A stretch of DNA of 20,653 bases from a phage, in the NCBI GenBank assembly GCA_024975835.1, contig GCA_024975835.1_4840.2, one strand, 5' to 3'. Every line of letters begins with the position of its first letter. The first letter of the stretch is position 1. Below the pieces are notes generated by a model. It had not been told where the DNA came from, did not search any database, and was given only the letters and a program-made list of their open reading frames with translations. Positions 1 through 15,251 of this stretch are shown in pieces. The position numbers were made by a program, and so were the translations under genes.

Positions 1-56
1 ATTATTCAATAACTGGCGAACGATGGGTTCACCGGGTTGAAAGGTAAGATTATATC

Positions 57-296
57 ATGAAGAACAAAATGGTCGAAACTTCAGTAGAGATTGATCGCAA
101 TTGGGGATTGCTCCGCGCTAAAGGGTTCCGCCGTGTGTATGCGACCAAAGAAGTCTACGCACAGCGTCGTGACGTTATCATCAGCAAGAAGGGCAAAGAG
201 TGGGTTGCTGAAGAAGTTGATGTCGAGACAGGCATCGTGGGAAAGGTAAAGGCCAAGGCCGCGATCCTCTTCGCTCTTCTGAAGCACATCAGTTAA
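57..296 (+). CDS. hypothetical protein (79 aa)
   Basis: Complete ORF; ATG preceded by AAGGTAAGATTATATC, i.e. SD-like AGGT plus the recurring TATATC-ATG start context. No recognisable motifs. Confidence 0.5.
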   Translation: MKNKMVETSVEIDRNWGLLRAKGFRRVYATKEVYAQRRDVIISKKGKEWVAEEVDVETGIVGKVKAKAAILFALLKHIS

Positions 297-307
297 TTCT
301 ATAACTT

Positions 308-333
308 TGGGTGGGGTATGATTACCCCGCCCA
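308..333 (+). promoter_or_regulatory. strong intergenic hairpin (11-bp stem with one G.U, loop TGAT); possible terminator or RNA processing/stability element
   Basis: TGGGTGGGGTA-TGAT-TACCCCGCCCA read directly from sequence between the stop at 296 and the start at 356. Only a short T run follows, so it is not a textbook intrinsic terminator. Confidence 0.4.
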
Positions 334-355
334 TTTGAAACCAAGAGACTATATC

Positions 356-733
356 ATGAAAAAGTTAATCCTCGCTGTTGCCCTGCTGGGCGCTTCCTTT
401 GCTGCTGTTTCCGCCCCTTCTGTCATCACTGGGGTGTCTACCAACGGTGTTTATGCTTTCAAGGCGTATGGCCAAGACCTCGTTCTGTATAAGAACGGGA
501 AGATGATTGAGCGCTGCGTATCAGACGACGTGAATCGTGGGATCGACAATCAGGGTAGCCCATACGTCCTGGACATCTATTCCTGCTCCAACGGGACGAA
601 GTCCTTTGGCGTCAAGACCTTTGGCAACGTCGCCGACGGTGGCTGGGGCTTCATGTTCGAAACCCGCAACCACCACCCGGTCAAGACCATGCAAGAAGAG
701 TTCTTGATCTCTGTCGGGGGTGGAACATTATGA
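356..733 (+). CDS. secreted/periplasmic protein with cleavable signal peptide (about 125 aa)
   Basis: ATG at 356 inside the track ORF 311..733 (the track start at 311 is GTG). N-terminus MKKLILAVALLGASFAAVSA-PSV is a classic Sec signal (K-K, hydrophobic core, AxA-like site). Start sits in GACTATATC-ATG context. Confidence 0.6.
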   Translation: MKKLILAVALLGASFAAVSAPSVITGVSTNGVYAFKAYGQDLVLYKNGKMIERCVSDDVNRGIDNQGSPYVLDIYSCSNGTKSFGVKTFGNVADGGWGFMFETRNHHPVKTMQEEFLISVGGGTL

Positions 734-1017
734 CGCCTGAACAACGCCGTTCCGTGAAAGTCATGGTGAAAGGTAAGACTCAGCTGAGTTATGTCCAGTC
801 TGCCAATGTTGTCCGCCTGATGGAAGTCAAGAACGACATCGACAACTCCCGATTCCAATCGGCGCTCTACGGGCTTCTCGAGTTCGTTCTTCGCCAGGCT
901 GATCTTGGTCCTGTCTATACTCTTGATGATCTGACCAAGCTGTTGAACACGGGCGGGGAAGGTTTCGACACTGCTCGTATCCTGATTGACGGTGGACCTG
1001 AAGAAGACGAGGTATAA
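730..1017 (+). CDS. hypothetical protein (95 aa)
   Basis: ORF whose ATG overlaps the upstream stop (ATGA at 730-733), suggesting translational coupling. No recognisable motifs. Confidence 0.5.
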   Translation: MTPEQRRSVKVMVKGKTQLSYVQSANVVRLMEVKNDIDNSRFQSALYGLLEFVLRQADLGPVYTLDDLTKLLNTGGEGFDTARILIDGGPEEDEV

Positions 1018-1177
1018 TTTGGATAAAGAATTGGTTTGGGAAATTGTGAAGGGTGTCTTAGTAATAATCGCGGTGGTTTTCATCTTGGGTGGGAACTTCT
1101 TCTATTGGTTATTCCGATCCGACCAGAAACGTCGCAAACGCAAGGAGAAAGAGAGAAAGGATCGATGGATGCGCTAA
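986..1177 (+). CDS. small membrane protein, one predicted TM helix and basic C-terminal tail; start uncertain
   Basis: Hydrophobic segment VLVIIAVVFILGGNFFYWLF followed by KRRKRKEKERK. The ATG at 986 overlaps the upstream gene by 32 nt; alternative in-frame starts TTG 1019 (GAGGT 5 nt upstream) or GTG 1043 are equally plausible. Confidence 0.35.
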   Translation: MTVDLKKTRYNLDKELVWEIVKGVLVIIAVVFILGGNFFYWLFRSDQKRRKRKEKERKDRWMR

Positions 1178-1209
1178 CTAAGGGATAACCCTATATCCCG
1201 AGGTGTGTC

Positions 1210-1659
1210 ATGTTCCTTACATCCTTTATTGACTGGTTGAACATCATTAACGGCCTGAGGATCCCTGTTGGGAACCTCGGGCTTTCTCGTTCTTCTATGC
1301 CGCAAATCGATGCCGACAAACAAGAAGATTTTCACAAATATCTTGAAGACAACGGTGTGTCCATAGATGCTGTGCAAGTGCCCATCAAAATGCTTCGTCT
1401 CACCCAGAACGAAATCAACAAGATGAAGGTCTGGAAGATCATGAAGAACATCAGAAATAAGAAACCTATGGGTCGAGTTTGGGTGTCTTCTGACAATTAC
1501 GTTGTTGACGGTTCTCACCGATTTGTCGCTGCGTTGAACATGGACGGCAAACAGCGCATGAAGGTCTACAAAGTTGATTTGCCAGCGATGGAATTTATTA
1601 AACTCGCTAAACAGTTTCAGGGTGTGCGATACAGAACGGTCAGCGACACCCGTTTCTGA
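1210..1659 (+). CDS. ParB/sulfiredoxin-like (ParB N-terminal nuclease-type) domain protein
   Basis: Motif VVDGSHRFVAA resembles the ParB/Srx-fold signature (DG-HR-xAA). GAGG lies 8 nt upstream of the ATG. Assignment is by motif only. Confidence 0.5.
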   Translation: MFLTSFIDWLNIINGLRIPVGNLGLSRSSMPQIDADKQEDFHKYLEDNGVSIDAVQVPIKMLRLTQNEINKMKVWKIMKNIRNKKPMGRVWVSSDNYVVDGSHRFVAALNMDGKQRMKVYKVDLPAMEFIKLAKQFQGVRYRTVSDTRF

Positions 1660-1738
1660 ATACGATAGTTTATTGAATCCCTTTACTCATTATGGTGAGC
1701 CGCCTATCATTTCATCCAATGAAATAAGGAGAATCGCC

Positions 1739-2425
1739 ATGAAACGTTTAATCCTCGGGGTTGTGCTGGCTGGTCTGGCATTACCCGCCGCTGCCAAGCT
1801 GAACTCCACAGGTGATAAACTGTGGTCCGACCTTTCCTATTGTGCTGGGTTCTCCCAGGCGGTTGCCATCGACAAGTCTGGTTCCATAGAGAACTTCGCT
1901 GAACTCTGGAACACAGGTAACGTCTCCACTGCTGTCGTCAATGCCGGAATTGAGTTCAACCGTTACAAACAGGGAGCCTATAACCTCAAGGGCTACCTCA
2001 ATGACGACGAATTTAACCGTGGAGGCATGGAGGCTGGCGATTTGATCATGACTGGGCGTATGGGCACCCAAGGCCGAATGACCGTAAGACAGTGCCGTTC
2101 GCTCCCTTCTCCAGCATTACAGAAGGGTGTGCAGGTTGGTCGCCGCCACCTGAACCTTATCAACGATGGCAACCAGTGCATCAAAGTATTCGAATACAGC
2201 GCTACGCAGACCTCTGATCGCGTCCTGAAGAAGGAATGGCGCACCCGCGCTCTTGGTCTCAGAGCCTGGCTGGTTGAGAACGATTATTACTTTGAAGACA
2301 GGGTTCAGAACGGTCTGAAAGACCTGGCCACGAATCTGAGCGTGAACCTTGATGATCCCCGCATGTCGCGCGAACTCCAGCAGACTCGTGTTGACTGCGA
2401 CAATATGATGAAGGAGAACGAGTGA
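1739..2425 (+). CDS. secreted protein with signal peptide (about 228 aa)
   Basis: ATG at 1739 inside track ORF 1574..2425, preceded by strong SD AAGGAG at 7 nt. N-terminus MKRLILGVVLAGLALPAAA-KL is signal-peptide-like. Confidence 0.65.
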   Translation: MKRLILGVVLAGLALPAAAKLNSTGDKLWSDLSYCAGFSQAVAIDKSGSIENFAELWNTGNVSTAVVNAGIEFNRYKQGAYNLKGYLNDDEFNRGGMEAGDLIMTGRMGTQGRMTVRQCRSLPSPALQKGVQVGRRHLNLINDGNQCIKVFEYSATQTSDRVLKKEWRTRALGLRAWLVENDYYFEDRVQNGLKDLATNLSVNLDDPRMSRELQQTRVDCDNMMKENE

Positions 2426-2751
2426 TGAAATGTAAAATCCTGCTCTTGTTGGTACTGATAGCCGGGTGTGTAAACGCCGCGCCACCGTCCAAACTGAACA
2501 CATGTGTGGCGTGGATGGAGACGTATCAGCAGTTCCACCCAGATGACAAAGATACATCTATCCTCCTGTCCGACTTCGAGGGAGAGCTGAAGCGCCTTGA
2601 TCTGTTCAGTGTTGATCAGATAGAGAATGCGCTGGATCTTCCCATGATGCTGACTGCGGCTGACAACAGTCCACAAACGAAGAAAGACCTGATGTATTGC
2701 CGGGGGATTGCCCAGGACTTTGTCGGATTTCAAAATAAAGTTTCGGGTTAA
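2425..2751 (+). CDS. putative lipoprotein (about 108 aa)
   Basis: MKCKILLLLVLIAGC carries a lipobox-like LIAG-C. AAGGAG lies 8 nt upstream of ATG 2425; the start overlaps the upstream stop (TGATG). Confidence 0.6.
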   Translation: MKCKILLLLVLIAGCVNAAPPSKLNTCVAWMETYQQFHPDDKDTSILLSDFEGELKRLDLFSVDQIENALDLPMMLTAADNSPQTKKDLMYCRGIAQDFVGFQNKVSG

Positions 2752-2772
2752 AATTTAGCCCTACATTGTGAA

Positions 2773-3657
2773 ATGAAGGAATACACTGTGATGCTCCTGA
2801 CCAAAACAATCGCTGCAGCGATTATCGAAAAGAATAAGGCTTTTGCCCCCAACGCAGCCAAAGTTATGTTGGTACACGAAGACGCTCGCGTGATCTTCGC
2901 CGAGAAGTTCGAGATGGGCGCGAAGTTCTGGTATGCCGACAACTTGCGTGAGAGCAAACTTCAGGGTATCATCCACAAACTGACTCTGGTCGCCAAGCGT
3001 AATGACCAGGGTGACTGGGTCGGCGTTTCTGACTTCAGTACGAAGATCACCCCAAAGGCTCCGCTTTCTCGTCAAGAGCGCATTCTGGAAGCCCAGGAAA
3101 AGCTGCGTGCGGCTCGGAGTACCCCAAAGGCGAAACCAGATGCAAGCCCTGTTATCAAGCCAGCGGTTGTTCCTAAGTCCAAATACCTCCCTCCCGTGAG
3201 TCAAAAGGCTGTGGAGCAATTGGTTGAGAAGCGCAAGGGTGACGTTGTGATGAAGTCTGACTCTTCAGTGGAGCCGTTCAAGCCGGATCCAGCAGAAGTA
3301 CAGGCGCTGGCAGAAAAGGTAAAGAATTCACAATTCATTTCCCTGCGTGAACTTGAACCGCCTACTCGCCGTCGTGTCGCCAACGAGCTGTTTGTGTCGT
3401 TCAGGTCGGATGGCAAGATCGTCCTGTGCAAAGCCCTGCGCGATGCAATCCCTTGGACAACTCTGAACATGATGGTCACTCGCGACTTCAAGCGTTTCGG
3501 TATCATGCAAGGCAAGGACTACAACGTCAACCAGAGCGGGACTTATGTTAATCGCGCCATGTGTGACAAACTGACCTTCCCAGAAGATACTGGAACGATC
3601 CGTGTCGTTCTGAACTGGGACGACAAGCTGAATATGTATGTTGGTGATTTCCAATAA
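2773..3657 (+). CDS. hypothetical protein (about 290 aa)
   Basis: Long ORF with a Lys/Pro-rich middle region. Start ambiguous between ATG 2773, GTG 2788 and ATG 2791; AAGGA at 2775-2779 favours one of the latter two. Confidence 0.55.
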   Translation: MKEYTVMLLTKTIAAAIIEKNKAFAPNAAKVMLVHEDARVIFAEKFEMGAKFWYADNLRESKLQGIIHKLTLVAKRNDQGDWVGVSDFSTKITPKAPLSRQERILEAQEKLRAARSTPKAKPDASPVIKPAVVPKSKYLPPVSQKAVEQLVEKRKGDVVMKSDSSVEPFKPDPAEVQALAEKVKNSQFISLRELEPPTRRRVANELFVSFRSDGKIVLCKALRDAIPWTTLNMMVTRDFKRFGIMQGKDYNVNQSGTYVNRAMCDKLTFPEDTGTIRVVLNWDDKLNMYVGDFQ

Positions 3658-3668
3658 TCAATAACCTC

Positions 3669-3700
3669 GGGTGGCTTATCATAAAGCTGCCCTTTCATTT
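3669..3700 (+). terminator. hairpin plus T-rich tail, candidate intrinsic terminator
   Basis: GGGTGGC-(10-nt loop)-GCTGCCC, a 7-bp stem with two G.U pairs, followed by TTTCATTT. Lies just after the stop at 3657. Confidence 0.35.
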
Positions 3701-3713
3701 GAGTGACTATATC

Positions 3714-4376
3714 ATGGAAAAACTTTATTCTATTATCGTCGGTCCTGATCCTGACGGATTATTCTTCGCCCCGTTGTCTTATATTGCCCACGCCCGTATC
3801 GGTAGCTATTACGCATATTGCACACGTGGCCACGACGGTTCCAATATCCTCCATTATAGCCGCCTGAACGATTTCCTGGAACTTCAACCAGAAGATGTTG
3901 TGCTGGCGCGTCGCGTGTTCATCGACTTCAACGCGATGCACAACAACGAAATCGACGCTCGCTATCATGCCATGCGTTCTATGGAAGGGGGAGACTGCAT
4001 TTATCGTATAGACCATTTTAGTGAGTTTACCGAATGTATTGATTGGTTTATCTCTGATAAAGTGATGGGTGAAAGAATCGTCACAACTCCGTGGGCACAT
4101 GCGGAACAACTTCGTGTGTCTACCGATGCGTACAAAGAAGTCGACAATCTGTGCAACAAGTTCCGCATCTCGGTGACCTGTAATCAAGACCTGGGCGAAG
4201 AGATACAATGGACAGCTGAGTCTCCTCATTTCAGTGACCTGGTGATGACGGCCGAAACCCGTTCCCGTGCTGTTATCCAGTTAGTACTCTGGGCGTTCTA
4301 CCAGCGCACCCCGTTCTCGTACATGGGACAGAAAGAGATTGATGAACTCCTGAAGTCTCACGCGGTGGAGGTGTAA
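3714..4376 (+). CDS. hypothetical protein (about 220 aa)
   Basis: ATG at 3714 inside track ORF 3699..4376, in GACTATATC-ATG context. No recognisable catalytic motifs. Confidence 0.6.
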   Translation: MEKLYSIIVGPDPDGLFFAPLSYIAHARIGSYYAYCTRGHDGSNILHYSRLNDFLELQPEDVVLARRVFIDFNAMHNNEIDARYHAMRSMEGGDCIYRIDHFSEFTECIDWFISDKVMGERIVTTPWAHAEQLRVSTDAYKEVDNLCNKFRISVTCNQDLGEEIQWTAESPHFSDLVMTAETRSRAVIQLVLWAFYQRTPFSYMGQKEIDELLKSHAVEV

Positions 4377-4377
4377 T

Positions 4378-4656
4378 ATGGCTGGTGTATGGTGTGATGT
4401 CTTGCTGGTTCGTTACAGCGTAAATGGGTGTGTCCAAGTGCGTTCCGCCTTCTATCCAGTACCGTTCTCTTCCGGTGGCCTGACGGTTCAGCGAGTTCTC
4501 AATATTGAGGCAGAACTGAACAAAAAGTCTTTTGGTGTACAAGTCCTGGGGTACGATCTTCTGAATGAAATGATGGTTGAAGAAGACAAAGTTGAGACTG
4601 TCATTGGTCGTCAGGAGATGGAATCGTTAATCTCCAAATCGGAGGTCAAATCATGA
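4378..4656 (+). CDS. hypothetical protein (92 aa)
   Basis: ORF starting 2 nt after the upstream stop (TAATATG). No motifs recognised. Confidence 0.5.
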   Translation: MAGVWCDVLLVRYSVNGCVQVRSAFYPVPFSSGGLTVQRVLNIEAELNKKSFGVQVLGYDLLNEMMVEEDKVETVIGRQEMESLISKSEVKS

Positions 4657-4901
4657 GTCCCAACATGGCAATAATCTGGGTTGGTGAATCGTCAATGCGT
4701 TGTCCTCACAAGACGATCACCTTCTTGGACGATGAGCGCCTGGCCGAACAACGGGTTGAAGTCCGCGAAATGCAGGTTTCTTCAAAGGCGGTGAACGTTC
4801 CTGTGACTAATATTCAGACTTTTAAGCCTTGCGTCAGAGTGATTTGTGAACGCTGTGGATGTTATGGCACGATGACGACTGAAGACGTGGCGAAAGGCTA
4901 A
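4653..4901 (+). CDS. hypothetical protein with Cys-rich C-terminus (82 aa)
   Basis: ATGA overlap with the upstream gene. C-terminal CxxxxICERCGC cluster could bind a metal. Function unknown. Confidence 0.5.
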   Translation: MSPNMAIIWVGESSMRCPHKTITFLDDERLAEQRVEVREMQVSSKAVNVPVTNIQTFKPCVRVICERCGCYGTMTTEDVAKG

Positions 4902-4994
4902 TAATTTCGCTTTATTCAATATGTTTTGTTAGGTAAGATGTAGTCCTCTTGTAGTGAACATGAAAGTAAACATTAACCCAACGGAGAAATCCAG

Positions 4995-5273
4995 ATGAAT
5001 CGTACTGAATTTGTTGCCCACATTGCTTCGACCCAGAACATCACCAAAGGCGAAGCGGAGAAAGTAGTGGCATCCTTTATCGACGGTGTAAAAACTGCAG
5101 TTGCTGCAGGCGCATCTGTACAGCTGGTCGGCTTCGGTGCGTTCGAAGTGAAACACCAAGAAGCGCGTGAAGGTCGCAACCCTCTGAACGGCCAGACCAT
5201 TCAGATCGCGGCGAAAAACGTTGTGAAATTCAAAGTGGGCGAAGGTCTGAAGAACGCTGCCAACGGCAAGTAA
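4995..5273 (+). CDS. HU/IHF-family histone-like DNA-binding protein
   Basis: Protein is 92 aa, typical HU length. Contains the HU-family arm signature VQLVGFGAFEVKHQEAREGRNPLNGQTIQIAAKNVVKFKVG (compare bacterial HU GFGxF...R.GRNP...I.A...F..G). GGAG lies about 9 nt upstream. Confidence 0.85.
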   Translation: MNRTEFVAHIASTQNITKGEAEKVVASFIDGVKTAVAAGASVQLVGFGAFEVKHQEAREGRNPLNGQTIQIAAKNVVKFKVGEGLKNAANGK

Positions 5274-5401: not shown

Positions 5402-7120
5402 GTGACAGCATTCAACCAATATACTAAGGCGCTTGACGGCGTCGGACCAGTCAGCATAGACCGCATCAAGTCTCTTGCCACTGAGTTCTTCCCGTATGAC
5501 ACCGCCAACCCCGGCCAGATGGAATGCATCGTTGAAGCCATCGATGCCCTTGTGAATAAGAAATTCAAACACGTGATCATCGAGGCTCCGACTGGTGTAG
5601 GTAAATCCCTCATCGGCACTACCATCCATAACGTGCTTCGCCATTTGGTTCTTGAGCACAACCCGTATGGTCAGTTCCGCACGTCTATCACGACGCCGAC
5701 CAAAGGTTTACAGGATCAGTATGCAGCAGAGAAAGCCGTGGCGATAGACATCCTGAAGGGCAAGAAGAATTACCGTTGCCACATCAGTCCCGACCTATAC
5801 TACAACGCCATTCAGTGCCGTATGGCATGCCGTGATGGCCAGTGTAGTAAGAATCGTTGCCCATATGTTCAGGCGCGTCGACAGTGGACCGACGTCTCCT
5901 CCCTGCGCTGCACCAACGCCGCCATGATGGTGGAGATGTGCACGACGATCTGTATGAAGCCGGAAAACCGTGCCGATATGCTGATCCTTGACGAGTGTCA
6001 TAAAATGCCCTCTACGCTCCTAGAGCATACTATCATGGAATACAACATAAAGGCTGTGGAAGGGCTGCTTACGATCCCAGAGGGGGTGCCTATCGTGGAG
6101 ACCATCAAGGATATCATCATCCGCACAGAGAACTATGAATTGGGCAACCTGTATTCCCTGTCTGGTGAGATGCATGCGATATTTGATGAACTGCACGGCA
6201 AGGTTGAAGCCCTGTTGGAAACTCTTGAGGAACTGGTAGAGGACGAGCGCCTGACTGAAGCCCAGGTGATGAAGCTGTCTGATATTATTGATACTCTTCA
6301 CAACCTCAGCGACTACTGTGGTATCATGGGGCAGACCAACGCCAGCACTTTCATCGTACAGGAGAAGGACAAGGGTATGATTCAGTTCAAGCCTGTCATC
6401 GCCTCTGATGTATCCCAGTTCGGCCTGTTCCGCAAGGGTGACTACCACGTCCACATGTCGGCTACCATTTGTGGGATTGACTCGTACGCCCGGTCACTGG
6501 GTATCCGCGAGGGTGAGTACCACAAGATACAGATCGGCAACCCTATCCCGATTGAGAACCGGAAAGTCAACTACATGCCCATCATGAAGATGACAGCGAA
6601 CATGGGTGACTATGAGATGAAGAAGCTGGCCGAATACGTTGATGAAATCATCGCATTCCACCCTGGGCAGTCTGGTATCATTCACACAGTAAGTTATGAC
6701 CGCGCCCTGGCTATACAGAAGTTCAGTAAGTACCGGAATATGATTCACGTTCCTCGTACTCGTAAGGCTCTGATGGACATCATGGAACACGCGTTCAGGA
6801 CGAAGACGCCTTGTGTCATCGCCAGTCCGGCCATGGAAGAGGGGTATGACTTCAAAGGCGATTACAGTCGATTTCAGATCTTGATCAAGGTGCCATACGA
6901 TTACCTTGGTGATCCTCTGGTGGCCCACGTCAACAGTGTGGACCCATCGGCGTACTTCAGGATGGCGGTACTGCGTATCGTTCAGATGTGTGGGCGTTCG
7001 GTCAGGGGCGTGAATGACTGGGCTGCGACGTACATCCTTGATTCTTCTTTTGAATCACTGATGATGCGCAACCCAGAGTTCTTCCCCGCTTGGTTCACTG
7101 ATGCCGTGTTTGAGGTTTAG
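5402..7120 (+). CDS. SF2 DExH-box helicase with Cys-rich insert between motifs I and II (DinG/XPD-like architecture)
   Basis: GTG start with AGGAGG 6 nt upstream. Walker A EAPTGVGKS, motif II LILDECH, motif III SAT (HMSATICG), motif VI QMCGRSVRG. Five Cys within about 30 residues (RCH...QCRMACRDGQCSKNRCP) lie between motifs I and II, where XPD/DinG helicases carry their Fe-S domain. Confidence 0.8.
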   Translation: MTAFNQYTKALDGVGPVSIDRIKSLATEFFPYDTANPGQMECIVEAIDALVNKKFKHVIIEAPTGVGKSLIGTTIHNVLRHLVLEHNPYGQFRTSITTPTKGLQDQYAAEKAVAIDILKGKKNYRCHISPDLYYNAIQCRMACRDGQCSKNRCPYVQARRQWTDVSSLRCTNAAMMVEMCTTICMKPENRADMLILDECHKMPSTLLEHTIMEYNIKAVEGLLTIPEGVPIVETIKDIIIRTENYELGNLYSLSGEMHAIFDELHGKVEALLETLEELVEDERLTEAQVMKLSDIIDTLHNLSDYCGIMGQTNASTFIVQEKDKGMIQFKPVIASDVSQFGLFRKGDYHVHMSATICGIDSYARSLGIREGEYHKIQIGNPIPIENRKVNYMPIMKMTANMGDYEMKKLAEYVDEIIAFHPGQSGIIHTVSYDRALAIQKFSKYRNMIHVPRTRKALMDIMEHAFRTKTPCVIASPAMEEGYDFKGDYSRFQILIKVPYDYLGDPLVAHVNSVDPSAYFRMAVLRIVQMCGRSVRGVNDWAATYILDSSFESLMMRNPEFFPAWFTDAVFEV

Positions 7121-7884
7121 TAACCCGCAACGAAGGACAGATGGCACTTGACATTCGGTTCCAACGACGTCACAGAAACCGTCATATTGTCCGTATCTTG
7201 GCTGAAGTCAATGGTGGCGAGAGGTTTGGTCTGAATATGGTTGTAAACACTGTAGATCAGATCCTCGCCACGATACCCTACCTTCCCGTCGGTGTCTTGC
7301 CAATGACCCAGTGTCTCATCGTAGACATGTACTCTGAACTCGATCATATGGAAGAGTGCCTTGGGGATGTCCTTGAGCACGCTGGTGCCAACCACGGGAA
7401 TCTCTATGCTGGAATCATTGGAGTTCCCTTCATAGACCGAAGCCCATGCAAAGGTAGGATCACCCCCAGCAACAGGGGTTCGCTTCCAGTATTGGAATTC
7501 TGGGTTGCCTGAAGCGTTCTTCTGAAGTAGAATGACCTCACCACCTTTGAAGTTCGAAGTATCGATGTCGCCTCGCTGAAGTTCATCTGCTGGAGATCCA
7601 ATAAATTTCCAGCCTTCGCGATCCAATAAAGACTTATAATAGTCGGTGAACACGTTGCTGTCTTCTGCATCGTTGATGGCATCTTTGAGACCTTGGCCTG
7701 TCACCATCTCGTTGAGCTTCAACCACATGTTCTTGACAGCAGACGCTGCTGCGACTTGTCCAGCAGTCCCACCTGCAGCATAATCATAGATGATATCTTC
7801 TGACTTGATAGCATCATAGATAGAGAGGAGCAATTGCTCAATCTGCGGGGCGGTGAGACTGAAACGATATGCGCGGGGTGCCAT
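7117..7884 (-). CDS. hypothetical late protein (about 255 aa), only convincing minus-strand gene in the window
   Basis: Start assigned to ATG 7884 (MAPRAYRF...) within track ORF 7117..8043, because GAGGAA lies about 8 nt upstream and a TATAAATA box lies about 36 nt upstream on the minus strand. 3' end converges on, and overlaps, the helicase stop. No catalytic motif recognised. Confidence 0.6.
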   Translation of the reverse strand: MAPRAYRFSLTAPQIEQLLLSIYDAIKSEDIIYDYAAGGTAGQVAAASAVKNMWLKLNEMVTGQGLKDAINDAEDSNVFTDYYKSLLDREGWKFIGSPADELQRGDIDTSNFKGGEVILLQKNASGNPEFQYWKRTPVAGGDPTFAWASVYEGNSNDSSIEIPVVGTSVLKDIPKALFHMIEFRVHVYDETLGHWQDTDGKVGYRGEDLIYSVYNHIQTKPLATIDFSQDTDNMTVSVTSLEPNVKCHLSFVAGY

Positions 7885-7919: not shown

Positions 7920-7927
7920 TATTTATA
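7920..7927 (-). promoter_or_regulatory. T4-type late promoter box TATAAATA on the minus strand
   Basis: Plus-strand TATTTATA at 7920-7927 is the reverse complement of TATAAATA, positioned upstream of the minus-strand ATG at 7884. A gp55-like late sigma factor is encoded in this same window. Confidence 0.5.
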
Positions 7928-7929
7928 TC

Positions 7930-8457
7930 ATGATAGAAATTTATTCTGACGGGGGTTCTAACCCGAAGACCAACCAGGCCGCAGGTTGGGCATTTGTCAT
8001 CAGGCCAATAACGGGTATGCAATGGAAGGTGTTCTTCGGCCATCTACCTCCCCCGTCCACTAACAATATCGCCGAGTTGTTGGGCGTGACCAACGCATTG
8101 AAGCTGCTGTGGGCATTCTCAGGAAAGGGTGAGCGCAGAATACCAAAGGCAACAATTTGGTCTGACAGCCAATATGCCATCAAGAGTGTCACCGAATGGC
8201 GAACGAAGTGGGAGTATCAGGGTTTCCCAGACAAGAACGTTGAACTCATCAAAGATCTGTTCAGAATCTATGATCTCGTTTGTTCAATTTGTGATGTTGA
8301 ACTAAAATGGGTTAAGGGTCATGCGGGGCACGAAGGCAACGAACTTGCCGATGACTGGGCCACAGCAGCCAAAAACGACAGCAACTTCCTGATTGAGAAT
8401 GACAAGATCTCAGTGAAGAAGGTTGTTGGATCTTTTGATGAATTTATCGGTATCTGA
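7930..8457 (+). CDS. rnhA: ribonuclease H, type 1 (RnhA-like)
   Basis: Start ATG 7930 (MIEIYSDGG...) within track ORF 7834..8457. Catalytic signatures IYSDGG, NNIAEL, SDSQY and WVKGHAGHEGNELADDWA correspond to the D-E-D-H-D active-site pattern of E. coli RNase HI. Confidence 0.85.
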   Translation: MIEIYSDGGSNPKTNQAAGWAFVIRPITGMQWKVFFGHLPPPSTNNIAELLGVTNALKLLWAFSGKGERRIPKATIWSDSQYAIKSVTEWRTKWEYQGFPDKNVELIKDLFRIYDLVCSICDVELKWVKGHAGHEGNELADDWATAAKNDSNFLIENDKISVKKVVGSFDEFIGI

Positions 8458-8468
8458 GGGCTTTCATA

Positions 8469-9260
8469 ATGGGAATGAACTTCGTGGACAGAGGGGAGAA
8501 TGTCGTCAAATATTTCACGGACGAAGACAACGAGCGTGTCATCAGTATCCTTCGTGATTGGATCCCTGCTCGTAAGAAGGCTCTGGCTGAAGGCACCAGG
8601 CTTCCAAAGATCCCCAACTATGTTGCTCTACAGGTCCAGCGCATCATCACCAAGATGAGTACCCGCTACAACTATCGCGACTATCCCTTCCGTGAAGACA
8701 TGGTCTCTGAAGCAATAGTCAACATCCTGCGCTACCTCCACACCTTTGACGTCGAACACATTGGAAAGAAAGGGAAGATCAACTTCTTCTCTTGGGTGAC
8801 CATGTGTGCTGATCGCTCATTTGCTCGTAAACTGAACATCGAAGAAGAGCACACGTACATTAAATTGCGCTCATTTGAAGAGGCGGGTGGGTTCGCAGGC
8901 CTGGCAGACGATCCCGACTTCCAACAAGAGATCTTTGTTGATGCTACAGGAATTGGCATGGACTTCCGTGAGCGTATCGGTAACTTTGAGAACAAAAAGG
9001 ACGCTCAAAGACAGAAGGAGCGAGAGAAGGTGGAGGCAGCTCGTCTCGCAGAATCGAATAAAAAGATTGCGAAAGGCATACTTCAATACATGGCGCAGGC
9101 TAAGAATACGGTAACAGCGCAGGCCGAAGACAATTCAGATCAGGACTTTGGCAAAACCCAATTCAATCTGGAAGATGATATCTGTGCGATGGAACCAGAT
9201 TGGGAAGCCCTCAAACAAAGATTAGAAGAACGGGAGAAAAAGAATAATGGCGATTGCTAA
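8469..9260 (+). CDS. gp55-like late-transcription sigma factor with extended charged C-terminal tail
   Basis: Pattern RYNYRDY...VNILRYLHTFD...NFFSWVTMCADRSFARKL parallels T4 gp55 as I recall it (RFNFSGY...LHNFD...YITQACFNAFVQRI). Protein is about 80 aa longer than T4 gp55, with a Lys/Glu-rich C-terminal region. Confidence 0.75.
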   Translation: MGMNFVDRGENVVKYFTDEDNERVISILRDWIPARKKALAEGTRLPKIPNYVALQVQRIITKMSTRYNYRDYPFREDMVSEAIVNILRYLHTFDVEHIGKKGKINFFSWVTMCADRSFARKLNIEEEHTYIKLRSFEEAGGFAGLADDPDFQQEIFVDATGIGMDFRERIGNFENKKDAQRQKEREKVEAARLAESNKKIAKGILQYMAQAKNTVTAQAEDNSDQDFGKTQFNLEDDICAMEPDWEALKQRLEEREKKNNGDC

Positions 9261-10362: not shown

Positions 10363-12700
10363 CATGACTCAAAGTACAGATATCCTGGCCAAATTTGGCA
10401 ATCTTTTGAAGGAAGCTGACACCCCGGTAGAGGTGGAAGTCCCATTTGAAGTGCGTGATAACGTTACGCACAAACTAACTTTCCGCAAAGGTCGTGCCAA
10501 AAACTTCCGTTCCATCGGCAATCAGTTCATGGAGATTGATTATCAGCGCAACCCAGCCACCCTTGTCACGTCTGATGACAACGGCGCGGGTAAATCCACG
10601 ATGTTGGTATGGCTGCTGTTCTTCGTACTGTACAACACCACGTACAGTAAGAAGGAGAAGAAGGCAGGCCTGGTTAACTCACAAAGCCGCAAGGAATGTG
10701 TGGGTGAGGTAGAGTTTGCCTGTCGTGGTAGTGAATGGAAAGTTCGCCGGGGTATCAAGCCCGACTTTGTTGAAGTCTACCAGATGGTGGACGGTAAGTG
10801 GTTGAAGATCGATAACGAAGCAGCCAAAGCCGACATGAACAAGTACATCGTGAATCTCATCGGTGTAGACCAGAAGATGTTTGAGAACTCTCTGGTGCTG
10901 GGCAAAGAGAAGTTCATTCCGTTCACGGAGATGTACACAGCCGACCGCCGCGCCATGGTGGAGACTATCTGGGACTTGGGCTTCTTCAGCCTGATGAACG
11001 AAGATGTCAAGGCATCCATCAAGAAAGCGAACGAAAAGCTGGACGCGATCGCGAATGAATGTGCGTTGAAGGTTGTTGACCACACCAACAAGAAGACGCA
11101 GCTACAGCAGATAGAGCGGTCCAATGCCCTTATCCAACAGCAGTCGGCCGATATCCTTGTGCAGCAACAGGAAGCCCTGACTTCCCTAGACGCTGACATC
11201 GCCGCCCAGAATGAAGAGCGCACCCGCCTCACTGCGGTTGAGTTCGAAGCCGCCCAGGAAATGAAGATAGTAGAAAGCCGCCTGCATGATGAATCCATGG
11301 TGGAGATCGATGCTGTCAAGAAAGACTTTGATGCCAAGATCCAGGCGGTGAAGGATGCCGCTCAGGAAAAGGCCGATGATTATGAGCGTATCGAAGTGTC
11401 TATTGCGGAGCATGATCTTCAGGTCTTGCGTGACCGCGCCTTTACAGTGGCCGAACGCAAGAACACCCTGCTCACCGAGCGCAACACAAACCTGGACGCC
11501 CTGAACGCTGCTATCCAGCGCCGTCAGCAGGGTGAGAACTTCCGTATCAAGTTCCAGACCGAAATGGATGGACATCAGTCGGCCATCAAGCGCTTCCACG
11601 ACATGGGGACTTGCCCAACATGTACCCAACTGGTGTCAGACGATACCAAGGCGCGTATTGAAAGCGAGTACAATCCTCAGATCCAGGAACTGCAGTCGAA
11701 GTTAGATCAACTGGACAAAGTTACCGCCGATATCAATGTCCTGATCGATGATCACAAGGCTCAGGACGATAAGTTGGTTGCTGACATTGCTGTGTTGGAT
11801 GCTGAACTGGATGCAATGCGCAAGCAGGCCGACGAAATCGTTGACAACATCAAGCAGCTGCGCCGTGATATTCAAGGTTTTCATGATGCCGCCACGATTG
11901 AGTGTAATTCGCTGAACCGTGAATGCCAACAGAAGATCCTTGACATCCGTAAGGCACTGAACGTTCGTTTTGAAGACATCACTGCGTCACTACAACAAAC
12001 TCGAGAGAATGCCGTCAGCGGGATTAAAGCCGTCGATGATAAGATCGCCGAGCTGAAAGCCCGTCGTGCTCCTCTCGTGGCGTCTATTGCCGATCTGGAG
12101 CGTAAACTGGCTGTACAGCCAACACCTACCACCGACCTGGAGAACTCTATCGCTGCGTTGGAAGGTGAACTGGAGTCTCTGTATGAACTCCGTGAAGATG
12201 CAGATGAGGAACTCCAGGACTTACAGCACCTGCTGTTCTTCTTGAAAGATGACCAGACCAAGGCGCGTATCATCGCCCTGTACTTGCCATTCCTCAATAG
12301 CAAGATCAACGAGTATCTTGAAGCCCTCAACATGTTCTTGGACATCGTTGTTGACGATACCTTTGAGATCACCATGAGCGCAGCAGGCCGCAAGGGACAG
12401 AGCATCTTCTCCCTGTCTACTGGCCAACGCAGTCGCCTGAACCTGGCTGTGACATTAGCTCTGCGCGATGTGGCTAACCTCAAGGCGTCTGTACAATGTA
12501 ACCTGTTCGTGCTGGACGAGATCCTTGAGAACATGAGCGAGCGCGGGGTGCAGGAATCGGTTGAGATGTTGAAGCATAAGTTCGGCGGGAACAACCTGTT
12601 TGTTATTAGCCAGCGCGAACAGGAGTTCCAGGAATACTTCCAACACAACATTCGCTACGGCCTGCGAAACGGCCTGACTGAAGTTATCAAGAAGGATTGA
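10355..12700 (+). CDS. gp46-like Rad50/SbcC-family ATPase
   Basis: Walker A DDNGAGKSTM, long coiled-coil middle, ABC signature LSTGQRSRLNLA, Walker B LFVLDE. Start is ATG 10355 or 10364 adjoining the gp47 stop; there is an N-terminal extension of about 35 aa relative to my recollection of T4 gp46. Confidence 0.85.
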   Translation: MHNMTQSTDILAKFGNLLKEADTPVEVEVPFEVRDNVTHKLTFRKGRAKNFRSIGNQFMEIDYQRNPATLVTSDDNGAGKSTMLVWLLFFVLYNTTYSKKEKKAGLVNSQSRKECVGEVEFACRGSEWKVRRGIKPDFVEVYQMVDGKWLKIDNEAAKADMNKYIVNLIGVDQKMFENSLVLGKEKFIPFTEMYTADRRAMVETIWDLGFFSLMNEDVKASIKKANEKLDAIANECALKVVDHTNKKTQLQQIERSNALIQQQSADILVQQQEALTSLDADIAAQNEERTRLTAVEFEAAQEMKIVESRLHDESMVEIDAVKKDFDAKIQAVKDAAQEKADDYERIEVSIAEHDLQVLRDRAFTVAERKNTLLTERNTNLDALNAAIQRRQQGENFRIKFQTEMDGHQSAIKRFHDMGTCPTCTQLVSDDTKARIESEYNPQIQELQSKLDQLDKVTADINVLIDDHKAQDDKLVADIAVLDAELDAMRKQADEIVDNIKQLRRDIQGFHDAATIECNSLNRECQQKILDIRKALNVRFEDITASLQQTRENAVSGIKAVDDKIAELKARRAPLVASIADLERKLAVQPTPTTDLENSIAALEGELESLYELREDADEELQDLQHLLFFLKDDQTKARIIALYLPFLNSKINEYLEALNMFLDIVVDDTFEITMSAAGRKGQSIFSLSTGQRSRLNLAVTLALRDVANLKASVQCNLFVLDEILENMSERGVQESVEMLKHKFGGNNLFVISQREQEFQEYFQHNIRYGLRNGLTEVIKKD

Positions 12701-12702
12701 TC

Positions 12703-12867
12703 ATGAACTACGAACAAATTAAACTCGCAATCCTGGTCTTTGCATGCATCATTGACATCATTGCATTTTCTCGTGAAGTCGAAAGGAAAAACTACCTGAA
12801 AGCACTGGGGTATCTCGGGTTCTCTGTCTGGTTCTGTTATCTACTTGCAGGTCAAATCCTGAAATGA
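12703..12867 (+). CDS. small membrane protein with two predicted TM segments (54 aa); absent from the ORF track because it is under 60 aa
   Basis: ATG 12703 lies 2 nt after the gp46 stop and the stop overlaps the next ATG (ATGA). Hydrophobic stretches IKLAILVFACIIDIIAF and LGYLGFSVWFCYLLAG read from my own translation. Confidence 0.4.
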   Translation: MNYEQIKLAILVFACIIDIIAFSREVERKNYLKALGYLGFSVWFCYLLAGQILK

Positions 12868-13555: not shown

Positions 13556-14170
13556 ATGACGATGACAACGTTGAAGGCCATGGCCTTGTCCGTGACCTTT
13601 ACCATTGCCAGCGGGAATGTGCACGCTTCCCAAAGTACCACCCAATGTGATTATAATTTCTCCGAGCAACAACTCAATACACTGGCAACCGCCTATCACG
13701 TAGGCAAGACACAAGATCTTGGCTACACTCTGGCCGCCATATCTTGGCGAGAGAGCCGCGCTGGTGAAGATGTAGTGTCAATGCGATACGGCCTCAAGGC
13801 GGCCAACATGGGAGCCTTTCAGAACAAGGTGAAGACAGTTGGTGATCGCGAAGGTTGTAAGAATCGCAAGTGCTATGCCAATGTCGCCATAAAGTTGCTG
13901 ACCGACCAAGAATATGCCGCGCAAGCCGCCCTCGATGAGATGCAGTTCTGGCTGACCTATCACAATCAGAATATCCGCAAATCCCTCTCCTCTTACAATG
14001 CTGGCTTCGCCCGTAATCCCGCATCGAACGCGTATGCTGCCGACGTCGTGAAGAAAGCTAAATATCTTCAGAAATGTGTGTCCTTCGAAGGCCGGACCAT
14101 CTCCGAGGTAGATCCTCAGGTGATCGCCATGAACAAGCACACAATAGAGAAACTGAAGAGGACAAGATAA
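13556..14170 (+). CDS. SLT-domain lytic transglycosylase-like protein with N-terminal signal or SAR-like segment
   Basis: Order of motifs SWRES...GAFQ...SYNAG mirrors family-1 lytic transglycosylases (ES...GLMQ...AYNAG). N-terminus LKAMALSVTFTIASGNVHA is hydrophobic and Ala/Ser/Thr/Gly-rich. AAGGAA lies 8 nt upstream. Confidence 0.6.
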   Translation: MTMTTLKAMALSVTFTIASGNVHASQSTTQCDYNFSEQQLNTLATAYHVGKTQDLGYTLAAISWRESRAGEDVVSMRYGLKAANMGAFQNKVKTVGDREGCKNRKCYANVAIKLLTDQEYAAQAALDEMQFWLTYHNQNIRKSLSSYNAGFARNPASNAYAADVVKKAKYLQKCVSFEGRTISEVDPQVIAMNKHTIEKLKRTR

Positions 14171-14849: not shown

Positions 14850-14915
14850 AATATCCTTCCCTATACTTCATTCCATAAGCAGTACGACACCAACTTGAAA
14901 AGCAGGAACTATATC

Positions 14916-15251
14916 ATGACACAACTCAAGAACTTCACCGCCGATGACATGTTTGCCTTCCAGGGTGCTGAGCACTTTGCTGACGGCTCCGTACCTCGCA
15001 TCTACTACTTCTCCGACGAAGAAATGGAAGATTTCTTCGCCCTGATGGAAAAGGACTACGAATCGGGCGACTTCGTTTATATCATCCATCACGCTGAAGG
15101 ACTGACATTGGGTTGGACGGCCAACAATGAACCAGAAGAAGTAAACTTCCCTGAAGGTATCATGTCAGAGCGCGTCGAATATCTACTGGAAGCCCTGGAC
15201 CCCCACACCCTCCCGCTCTGGGCGATGTCTGTAGCCCAAGTTCAAAAATAA
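14916..15251 (+). CDS. hypothetical acidic protein (about 111 aa)
   Basis: ATG 14916 within track ORF 14832..15251, in AGGAACTATATC-ATG context. Asp/Glu-rich. Confidence 0.55.
   Translation: MTQLKNFTADDMFAFQGAEHFADGSVPRIYYFSDEEMEDFFALMEKDYESGDFVYIIHHAEGLTLGWTANNEPEEVNFPEGIMSERVEYLLEALDPHTLPLWAMSVAQVQK

Follow-up and report, generated by a model that had tools for sequence, protein, structure and literature searches.

An Ackermannviridae-specific pair of exported phage proteins whose spanin label is not supported

What do envelope-targeted proteins do when their genes are clustered amid the replication and recombination genes of a phage? This question is raised by bases 356-2751 of a 20,653-nt stretch of phage DNA (the whole of which is referred to here as the window), where a sequence-only reading had recognized two secreted proteins, a membrane protein and a lipoprotein, and had suggested that they might be exclusion or receptor-masking factors. 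The phage belongs to the Ackermannviridae and shows 97% identity to Escherichia phage YX22. The T4-type frame of that reading therefore does not hold in the strict sense, as this is not a T-even phage, although the genes do sit among replication genes. Similarly, the proposed envelope block was confirmed in part: four of the seven genes in bases 1-2751 are envelope-targeted, compared with one of approximately 23 across the remaining window (Fisher p = 0.006), which is more clustered than chance, but they do not constitute a single unit. The features of the region are as follows.

356-733, plus strand: p356, a 125-aa Sec-exported small periplasmic protein, predicted from sequence
730-1017, plus strand: p730, a 95-aa acidic protein without an export signal; phrog_4458
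1019-1177, plus strand: a predicted small single-pass inner-membrane protein of 52 aa; phrog_14464, 'membrane protein'
1210-1659, plus strand: p1210, a 149-aa cytoplasmic protein with a ParB/Srx-like domain (DGSHR); phrog_2859
1682-1710, plus strand: a candidate sigma-70-like promoter from a consensus scan, TTTACT-17-TATCAT, 29 nt upstream of the p1739 start
1739-2425, plus strand: p1739, a predicted 228-aa Sec-exported periplasmic protein; 'i-spanin' in some records
2425-2751, plus strand: p2425, a predicted 108-aa exported small helical protein
3669-3692, plus strand: an intrinsic-terminator-like hairpin (9-bp stem, 5 GC pairs, T-rich tail), a consensus match only

Export of the proteins of this block to the envelope is well supported by their N-terminal sequences. 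The signal-peptide calls rest on n-, h- and c-region anatomy together with conservation among homologues, and p356, p1739 and the p2425 family all have a basic n-region, an h-region of 7-15 residues and small residues at -3 and -1, as in Sec substrates of SPase I. Across all homologues, including some of only about 30% identity, these small residues are invariant or conservatively replaced and the hydrophobic cores are variable. The Sec signal peptides proposed at 356 and 1739 were both borne out, each with a conserved AxA cleavage site. In p356, the signal comprises residues 1-20 (bases 356-415; MKKLILAVALLGASFAAVSA followed by P, with cleavage between AVSA and P). In p1739, it comprises residues 1-19 (bases 1739-1795; MKRLILGVVLAGLALPAAA followed by K, with cleavage between LPAAA and K) and includes a 16-residue uncharged stretch, Pro at -4 and invariant Ala at -3 and -1 (LPAxA before K); remote p1739 homologues likewise bear AxA-type sites. 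It appears strongly supported, on this basis, that p1739 and p2425 are Sec-exported and that SPase I cleaves them in most of the family. Conserved cysteines number two in p356 (Cys54 and Cys77, conserved with the signal in an alignment of 11 homologues), four in p1739 (residues 35, 119, 147 and 220) and two in p2425 (Cys27 and Cys92). These counts are compatible with periplasmic disulfides, and the pattern would fit two disulfides in p1739 and one in p2425.

The membrane protein had been read from a TTG at 986. Its single-pass architecture with a polybasic tail stands, but the start is most likely the TTG at 1019, which lies 1 nt past the p730 stop with GAGG 6 nt upstream, whereas no ribosome-binding site precedes the TTG at 986. 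The phrog_14464 alignment begins at residue 14 of the longer version, and Maynard_92 and Marshall_92 are annotated from the same start as TTG 1019, with a ribosome-binding site. The resulting 52-aa protein has a short N-terminus, a TM segment (GVLVIIAVVFILGGNFFYWLF) and a polybasic C-tail; its predicted topology by the positive-inside rule is N-out/C-in. Menlow_111 matches it in architecture, and Pfam gives no above-threshold match. The gene interleaved within the block, p730, is not envelope-targeted (best KD19 hydrophobicity 0.75). The p356 protein matches phrog_5474, an entry with no assigned function, and has no match in Pfam or the PDB (the latter searched by sequence, with noise only); the motif CTATATC directly adjoins its ATG.

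These genes differ in how widely they occur. We found p356 in 105 phage records (Agtrevirus-like, Limestonevirus, Taipeivirus and a few Kuttervirus phages), the 52-aa membrane protein in 59, p1739 in 271 and p2425 in 282, and these differing distributions indicate that the four genes are not one unit. We regard p356 and the 52-aa protein as separate envelope accessories, more narrowly distributed than the p1739/p2425 pair, in a genomic slot where different lineages accumulate genes of this kind. Lineages differ in what lies between the acyl-carrier-protein and HU genes, a region that collects small genes, and the slot downstream of the pair holds further membrane proteins and lipoproteins in other lineages; in Serratia 3M, it holds a P22 gp17-type gene annotated as superinfection exclusion. 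In the window, the gene at 2791-3657 was considered as a counterpart of the SPFH lipoprotein that L006 and Bue1 have downstream, but the two have no similarity. NCBIfam and PADLOC searches gave no meaningful match.

The evidence that p1739 and p2425 form an Ackermannviridae-specific two-gene module is strong. In the window, the p1739 stop and the p2425 start overlap by 1 nt (TGATG). The overlap is kept in six lineages, and every lineage examined retains gene order and overlap together, even at approximately 30% identity. The two genes have matching record counts in the main host groups, with p2425 present in an additional 11 Serratia and Erwinia records, and the pair occurs in phages of Salmonella, Escherichia, Klebsiella, Dickeya, Serratia and Erwinia. 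A p1739 profile search of 1.84 billion representatives returned only 11 matches; the real ones all came from phage contigs of Ackermannviridae type in which the genes are in the same order, and one other (P0086) was rejected as a repeat-protein false positive. The p1210 gene, which also weakly matches a ParB-like phrog, immediately precedes the pair in all lineages examined (with synteny in L005, L006, L008 and L015) and is 92% identical to its Menlow counterpart and 60-68% identical to those of deep lineages. The pair itself is only 31-46% identical in deep lineages, compared with 60-64% for neighbouring core genes, and in Serratia 3M only the N-terminal half of p1739 is present. The pair is present almost throughout the family, as is more typical of a core function, and this counts against an exclusion accessory.

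Because the two genes are translationally coupled, their products are probably made in similar amounts. In the candidate promoter at 1682-1710, TTTACT and a -10-like TAnnAT recur in Maynard and Menlow, and L006 has only a -10-like TACTAT; sigma-70-like sites are as numerous in the region as expected from shuffled sequence, and this site is a consensus match only. The hairpin at 3669-3692, which follows the gene at 2791-3657, probably ends a p1739-p2425-p2791 transcription unit. Exact copies of the late-promoter motif (TATAAATA) are confined to 7920 (minus strand) and 18308 (plus strand), each just upstream of another gene, and bases 1-5000 contain no copy even when one mismatch is allowed. Searches of the literature turned up neither an Ackermannviridae transcriptome nor a lysis experiment.

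AlphaFold2 models, built without deep-lineage orthologues, predict that both proteins are compact, soluble periplasmic bundles of short packed helices (pLDDT 83 and 86 for p1739 and p2425, respectively; pTM 0.73). The p1739 model has 11 packed helices, each of 25 residues or fewer (pTM 0.73), and the mature protein is predicted to be globular, all-helical and two-lobed; p2425 is modelled as a compact, well-folded helical domain. By sequence, p1739 matches nothing in the PDB, and p2425 gives noise only, with no known family similar to it. The idea that p2425 is a paralogue of a p1739 domain was rejected, as the hhalign match (20%) covers the signal peptide only.

The fourth envelope protein, p2425, had been described as a lipobox lipoprotein, and for the window sequence this description is accurate. 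Its N-terminus (MKCKILLLLVLIAG followed by C) has the lipobox LIAG before Cys, with I-A-G-C at residues 12-15 (bases 2458-2469) after the n-region MKCK and the h-region ILLLLVL, in agreement with the consensus [LVI][ASTVI][GAS]C. The Val at +2 suggests an outer-membrane destination. However, the lipobox is a derived feature: of 36 full-length cluster representatives, just 6 carry it, each of them 95% or more identical to the window protein, and approximately 83% do not. In the nearest relative beyond this group, Ser replaces the Cys, and all other homologues, including those of the deep lineages L006, L007, Serratia 3M and Erwinia Bue1, have AxA followed by (A/S/T/V/E/Q)P. The ancestral SPase I site is kept even in the window protein (VNA followed by AP, bases 2470-2484), four residues past the lipobox Cys, and the mature domain is conserved where the lipobox is absent. 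The sequences indicate that the lipobox arose in the window subclade by a single Ser/Gly-to-Cys change, and the window protein is probably membrane-tethered via a 4-residue linker. As the lipobox is confined to one subclade, tethering would seem to be tolerated rather than required. Labels of 'putative lipoprotein' elsewhere, such as that of moki_66, have been copied by homology onto proteins without a signal Cys. The window p2425 is a clean case of a lipobox born by one substitution within an ordinary signal peptide.

In databases, the pair carries a more specific identity: it is labelled as i-/o-spanin in GenBank (RefSeq), SpaninDB and PHROGs/Pharokka, with p2425 appearing as 'o-spanin', 'Rz-like spanin' or 'lipoprotein'. 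The sequence-only reading had overlooked these existing labels on two of its four genes. The earliest that we found is that of phage Marshall, in a 2013 student genome announcement, where it has no experimental basis (PMC3853055); the name of PHROG 3843 matches Marshall's existing label, and moki explicitly copies it. The Marshall pair is listed in SpaninDB, as a singleton in both family tables, and the literature yielded no experimental report of the pair in outer-membrane disruption or lambda Rz/Rz1 complementation. There are nevertheless resemblances. Two-component spanins (lambda Rz/Rz1; T4 PseT.3/PseT.2, which has the 'separated' architecture) are, like the pair, encoded by adjacent genes, large then small, with both products exported, and the pair shares with them the stop/start overlap and, in the window subclade, a lipobox on the small protein. 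Furthermore, the T4 spanin genes and the pair are alike in lying far from the endolysin gene.

However, the features that define spanins differ. Where an i-spanin has an uncleaved N-terminal TMD and a long coiled-coil periplasmic domain, p1739 is predicted, from sequence and conservation, to have a cleavable signal peptide, no TMD and a globular fold without a coiled coil (the SpaninDB coiled-coil table gives 0 for Marshall); T4 PseT.3, unlike p1739, has a 19-residue TMD without an LPAxA-type site. The periplasmic part of p1739 (206 residues) is about twice that of the other separated i-spanins shown from SpaninDB, in which the pair is the longest two-component spanin (300 residues). The o-spanin lipobox anchor is present in the window sequence but not at the level of the p2425 family, whose members are mostly non-lipoproteins with a folded helical domain rather than a short proline-rich lipopeptide. 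Profile comparison of the pair with PseT.3 and PseT.2 by hhalign gave 0.2% and 0.1%, and Pfam and NCBIfam give no match at all, to characterized spanin families or otherwise. Judged by these sequences and models, the spanin label is not supported.

If the pair is not a canonical spanin, which known systems does it resemble? The claim that none of the four proteins resembles T4 Imm or Sp held up: Pfam, PHROG and NCBIfam contain nothing relating them, hhalign of the p2425 family with Sp gave 11% probability, confined to the signal peptide and with no shared homology or fold, and BLASTP of the 52-aa membrane protein with Imm gave E = 7.6. Like the 52-aa protein, Imm is a small phage inner-membrane protein whose gene lies among replication genes, but Imm has two TM segments and the 52-aa protein has one, with a polybasic cytoplasmic tail. 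The likeness of p2425 to Spackle (Sp, gp61.3), the periplasmic inhibitor of the gp5 tail lysozyme, is one of design. Both are Sec-signal precursors of about 100 aa (97 in Spackle), with a small mature part that has one Cys near each end and, in p2425, is predicted to be helical and disulfide-bonded; the Spackle signal, too, has a lipobox-like LASC before its AxA site. The sp and imm genes of T4 sit among early replication genes, as the window block does, and the Ackermannviridae are annotated with a gp5-type tail lysozyme (PMC10892097). Spackle acts alone, in contrast to the two-protein module described here.

Taken together, the explanation that we favour, tentatively and as a possibility short of probable, is that p1739 and p2425 form a soluble, disulfide-bonded periplasmic complex, made before the late phase, that conditions the infected cell's envelope or protects it and is not a membrane-fusing spanin. 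A host-type promoter, rather than a late one, would drive the pair before late transcription; the two proteins may act as a complex; and they could be the functional counterpart of the early Spackle and Imm of T4, for example by binding a periplasmic enzyme or an entry component. The fit to an Imm/Sp-like early role is circumstantial, and consists of the missing late promoter, the replication-gene setting and the neighbouring envelope slots.

Alternatively, the four proteins could be unrelated minor accessories (host-specific envelope tweaks or anti-defence proteins), with p1739 and p2425 merely co-transcribed and forming no complex. The unequal record counts, the variable acyl-carrier-protein-HU region, the faster divergence of the pair than of neighbouring core genes and the truncated p1739 of Serratia 3M all speak for this, but the overlap and order kept in every lineage examined, and the joint retention of the two genes (271/282 records) in the same main host groups, make it unlikely, if still worth serious consideration. 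The window p2425, with its consensus lipobox and Val at +2, could instead be an outer-membrane lipoprotein that masks a receptor, as do T5 Llp and Cor, which are small disulfide-bearing phage lipoproteins; the identical Maynard protein was annotated as a lipoprotein by the Texas A&M Center for Phage Technology. This likeness is restricted to the window subclade, there is no sequence relation, and the hosts of the family are not known to share one receptor. As lipidation is not a family feature (no deep lineage has the lipobox, although the mature domain is conserved), and as lipoprotein labels have spread to Cys-less signals, we regard this as the least likely reading of all. Only slightly better placed, and still very improbable, is a periplasmic lysis-timing sensor analogous to the T4 RI antiholin and the holin periplasmic domain, for which the predicted periplasmic, helical, disulfide-bonded character of the proteins and the carriage of rIIA/rIIB by these phages (PMC3853055; PMC9409062) can be cited.

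A further alternative is a lysis role. Canonical spanins were not found in Vi01, CBA120, AG3, Maynard, SFP10, PhaxI, ECML-4 or RC-2014 (Kongari 2018, PMC6139136), and so another outer-membrane route must exist in those phages. A non-canonical, anchor-less disruption module, such as a periplasmic complex acting after endolysin has removed the wall, would supply one; the pair is family-wide, its overlapping genes encode two exported proteins in the large-then-small order of separated spanins, and the Marshall pair has its SpaninDB entry. The T4 spanin genes are also distant from the holin and endolysin genes, in the early region, so position and timing are not decisive against such a role. On the other hand, the scarcity of the lipobox, the conserved LPAxA site in place of a TMD, the folded domain of p2425 without any coiled coil, the negligible hhalign scores, the lack of a late promoter and the experimentally unfounded label weigh against it, and Maynard, whose small protein is identical, was itself called spanin-less (PMC6139136). 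We therefore consider this module rather unlikely. A broader proposal, that the pair is a new anchor-less periplasmic system providing either the missing outer-membrane-disruption step or a two-component inhibitor of the tail lysozyme of Spackle type, is a little less doubtful but still on the unlikely side.

In summary, phages of the Ackermannviridae (Vi01, CBA120 and Limestone-like) are common agents of phage therapy and food biocontrol, and ten of them were classed as spanin-less in a 2018 spanin census (PMC6139136). The finding that the p1739/p2425 family is without the defining spanin anchors removes a false answer to the question of how these phages breach the outer membrane. It also leaves a conserved exported module as an obvious candidate to examine, whether for envelope protection or for a lysis route of a new kind, and either anchor-less reading of the pair would, if true, be a mechanism without a characterized homologue.

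Matches to bases 1-5000 of the window place the phage in the Vi01-like group of the Ackermannviridae, to which all 275 phage records found by megablast belong (top match Escherichia phage YX22, 97% over full length). The window encodes several T4-type core functions, namely gp46/47-type nuclease subunits, primase, RNase H, helicase, an HU-type protein and a gp55-type late sigma factor (8469-9260). As these sit in a Vi01-like genome with a G+C content of about 50%, kinship with T4 is limited to core modules.

The sequence-only reading had proposed a block of four envelope-targeted genes, and all four open reading frames are present, each with a plausible ribosome-binding site:

356-733 (+), exported protein, p356; 105 phage records
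1019-1177 (+), 52-residue membrane protein; 59 phage records
1739-2425 (+), exported protein, p1739; 271 phage records
2425-2751 (+), exported protein, p2425; 282 phage records

Their clustering is real: four of the seven genes in bases 1-2751 are envelope-targeted, whereas the rest of the window has one such gene in about 23 (Fisher p = 0.006). Signal peptides were judged by signal anatomy and by conservation among homologues, and on both counts the Sec signals of p356 and p1739 are borne out (a slash marks the end of a signal). In p356, the signal MKKLILAVALLGASFAAVSA/P and two cysteines are kept in 11/11 homologues. In p1739, with signal MKRLILGVVLAGLALPAAA/K, residues L15, P16, A17 and A19 are invariant (16 sequences), four cysteines are conserved, and in homologues of about 30% identity the hydrophobic stretch likewise closes with ASA/A, ANA/G, AWS/E or VHA/R. 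The earlier reading was largely right, with two corrections. The membrane protein exists, but the start proposed at 986 has no ribosome-binding site; TTG 1019 lies 1 base past the preceding stop and 6 nt 3' of GAGG, and gives a 52-residue product exactly as annotated in two curated relatives. Similarly, p2425 does carry a consensus lipobox in the window (IAG/C, residues 12-15), but this is derived and not general among its homologues.

The lipobox occurs in 6/36 full-length p2425 cluster representatives, all six sharing 95% identity or more with the version in the window, and by identity bands it is possible in at most about 28 of the 282 phage records. The nearest relative beyond these six reads LMAGSVNA/TP, with Ser at the position of the window's Cys, while all other members have an ordinary signal with an AxA end followed by an invariant xP. 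No lipobox was found in the orthologues of four deep lineages (a food-metagenome phage, a second metagenome contig, Serratia phage 3M and Erwinia phage Bue1), and the ancestral site, VNA/AP, is still present in the window protein four residues past the Cys. The lipobox was thus acquired recently. Labels such as 'putative lipoprotein' for moki_66 are homology copies; the moki_66 signal has no Cys.

The four genes are not distributed alike, and the conserved unit among them is the p1739/p2425 pair, since the host-genus counts of the two agree (p2425 has additional records from Serratia and Erwinia), and their order and stop/start overlap (1 or 4 nt) are kept in six lineages. A ParB-like gene always precedes the pair. 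Its ParB/Srx-like product (1210-1659 (+), DGSHR motif), encoded directly upstream, shows high conservation, with 92% identity to its Menlow counterpart and 60-68% in the deep lineages, and record annotations for it vary between 'structural protein' and 'cytidyltransferase'. The slots around the pair are variable, and elsewhere hold small membrane proteins, an SPFH lipoprotein, another lipoprotein or a GP17-type gene. Directly downstream of the pair we found:

Metagenome phage (L006), 7028-8028, and Erwinia phage Bue1 (L015), 2454-3233: 69-residue two-TM protein and SPFH/Band_7 lipoprotein
Serratia phage 3M (L008), 6711-7835: 38-residue TM protein, 91-residue lipoprotein and PF17420 GP17-type gene, the last annotated as superinfection exclusion

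An additional 167-residue gene, annotated as 'RNA polymerase ADP-ribosylase', directly before the p356 homologue of the close relative Salmonella phage vB_CECAV_050 (L003 3356-3859) is further evidence of slot variability.

Searches of Pfam, NCBIfam and PADLOC with the pair gave no matches, and PHROGs returned family-specific groups only, among them 3843, which bears the name 'Rz-like spanin'. When 1.84 billion representatives were searched in full with a profile, 11 proteins came up, and the real matches all lie on Ackermannviridae-type phage contigs with identical gene order. AlphaFold2 predicts a globular, all-helical p1739 of 11 short helices (pLDDT 83, pTM 0.73) and, for p2425, a compact domain of 4-5 helices (pLDDT 86). 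The pair, at 31-46% identity in the deep lineages vs 60-64% for neighbouring core genes, evolves faster than they do. The p1739 homologues of Serratia 3M (L008 6001-6381) and Erwinia Bue1 (L015 1004-1501) are short (126 or 165 residues) and correspond to the N-terminal lobe, and the small partner is full length in both; the minimal unit may be the N-lobe plus the small partner.

The earliest spanin label found for the pair is in GenBank record KF669653 (phage Marshall, 2013), where the orthologues are named i-spanin and o-spanin; the announcement offers no evidence for these names (PMC3853055), which were copied into further records, and PHROG 3843 bears the spanin name too. In a 2018 spanin census Marshall is entered among the two-component spanins of the 'separated' type; it stands alone as a singleton in both of the family tables, no coiled coil is predicted for it and, at 300 residues, its periplasmic length is the longest in the census (PMC6139136). 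Maynard carries a small protein identical to that of Marshall, yet the same census counts it as spanin-less, together with Vi01, CBA120, PhaxI, ECML-4, SFP10, SJ2, SJ3, AG3 and RC-2014 (PMC6139136). Of the census's own spanin features, the family of the pair shows gene adjacency only. Because the lipobox is not conserved, a predicted cleavable signal takes the place of a TMD and no coiled coil is predicted, the spanin annotation, though widely propagated, is not upheld. With hhalign, no similarity to T4 PseT.3 or PseT.2 was found (0.2% and 0.1%).

Signals relevant to the timing of expression are as follows:

1682-1710, sigma-70-like site, TTTACT-17-TATCAT
3669-3692, terminator-like hairpin after the gene next to the pair
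7920-7927 (-), exact T4-type late-promoter motif TATAAATA, 36 nt upstream of a virion-protein gene (start 7884, minus strand)
18308-18315 (+), the same motif, 26 nt upstream of ATG 18341

The two exact late motifs, the only copies in the window, fit T4-like late transcription via the gp55-type sigma factor; bases 1-5000 hold none, even with one mismatch allowed. The putative sigma-70-like site, whose TTTACT and -10-like elements also occur in Maynard and Menlow, and the hairpin are consensus matches rather than proof. A separate 10-mer, YTATATCATG, adjoins the start codons of five (+) genes (50-59, 349-358, 3707-3716, 7923-7932 and 14909-14918, abutting the ATGs at 57, 356, 3714, 7930 and 14916), among them p356 and neither p1739 nor p2425. 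Five matches compare with 0.05 expected, and five were reached in 0/100 shuffles. The close relatives YX22, CAU_YEP3, CECAV_050, Maynard and Marshall keep it, but Menlow and the deep lineages lack it. As the family encodes a RegA-like repressor, the 10-mer could be a translational operator; it could also be an RNA processing site.

What, then, might the pair do? The coupling of the two genes is well supported, and their products are, from their signals, very probably exported and processed; they are predicted, with strong support, to be disulfide-bonded, and modelled as soluble helical periplasmic proteins. We tentatively favour, at somewhat less than even probability, a pre-late periplasmic complex in the niche of T4 Spackle and Imm: the two proteins would work together, be produced ahead of late transcription, and serve to condition the envelope or protect it. 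In build, the nearest analogue of p2425 is Spackle (T4 sp, L011 3759-4052 (-)), whose signal has a lipobox-like LASC five residues before AMA/G, an arrangement shared by the window's p2425; homology or fold similarity between the two was undetectable. An anchor-less lysis module is improbable, and is kept alive by the lack of any recognised spanin in this phage family. Timing alone cannot decide between functions, because the T4 spanin genes likewise lie in an early region. The remaining probability falls to unrelated accessory roles of the proteins.

Also bearing on the lysis route of these phages is a 204-residue protein (13556-14170 (+), phrog_600) with a near-threshold SLT lytic-transglycosylase match (Pfam E = 4e-4, 20.3 bits vs a cut-off of 21.3), which may be a second muralytic enzyme. 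About 700 nt upstream of its gene lies that of the window's only other small membrane protein (56 residues, 12697-12867 (+)).

The negative result on the spanin label is the more useful outcome of this analysis; it leaves the pair as a conserved periplasmic module peculiar to this phage family.
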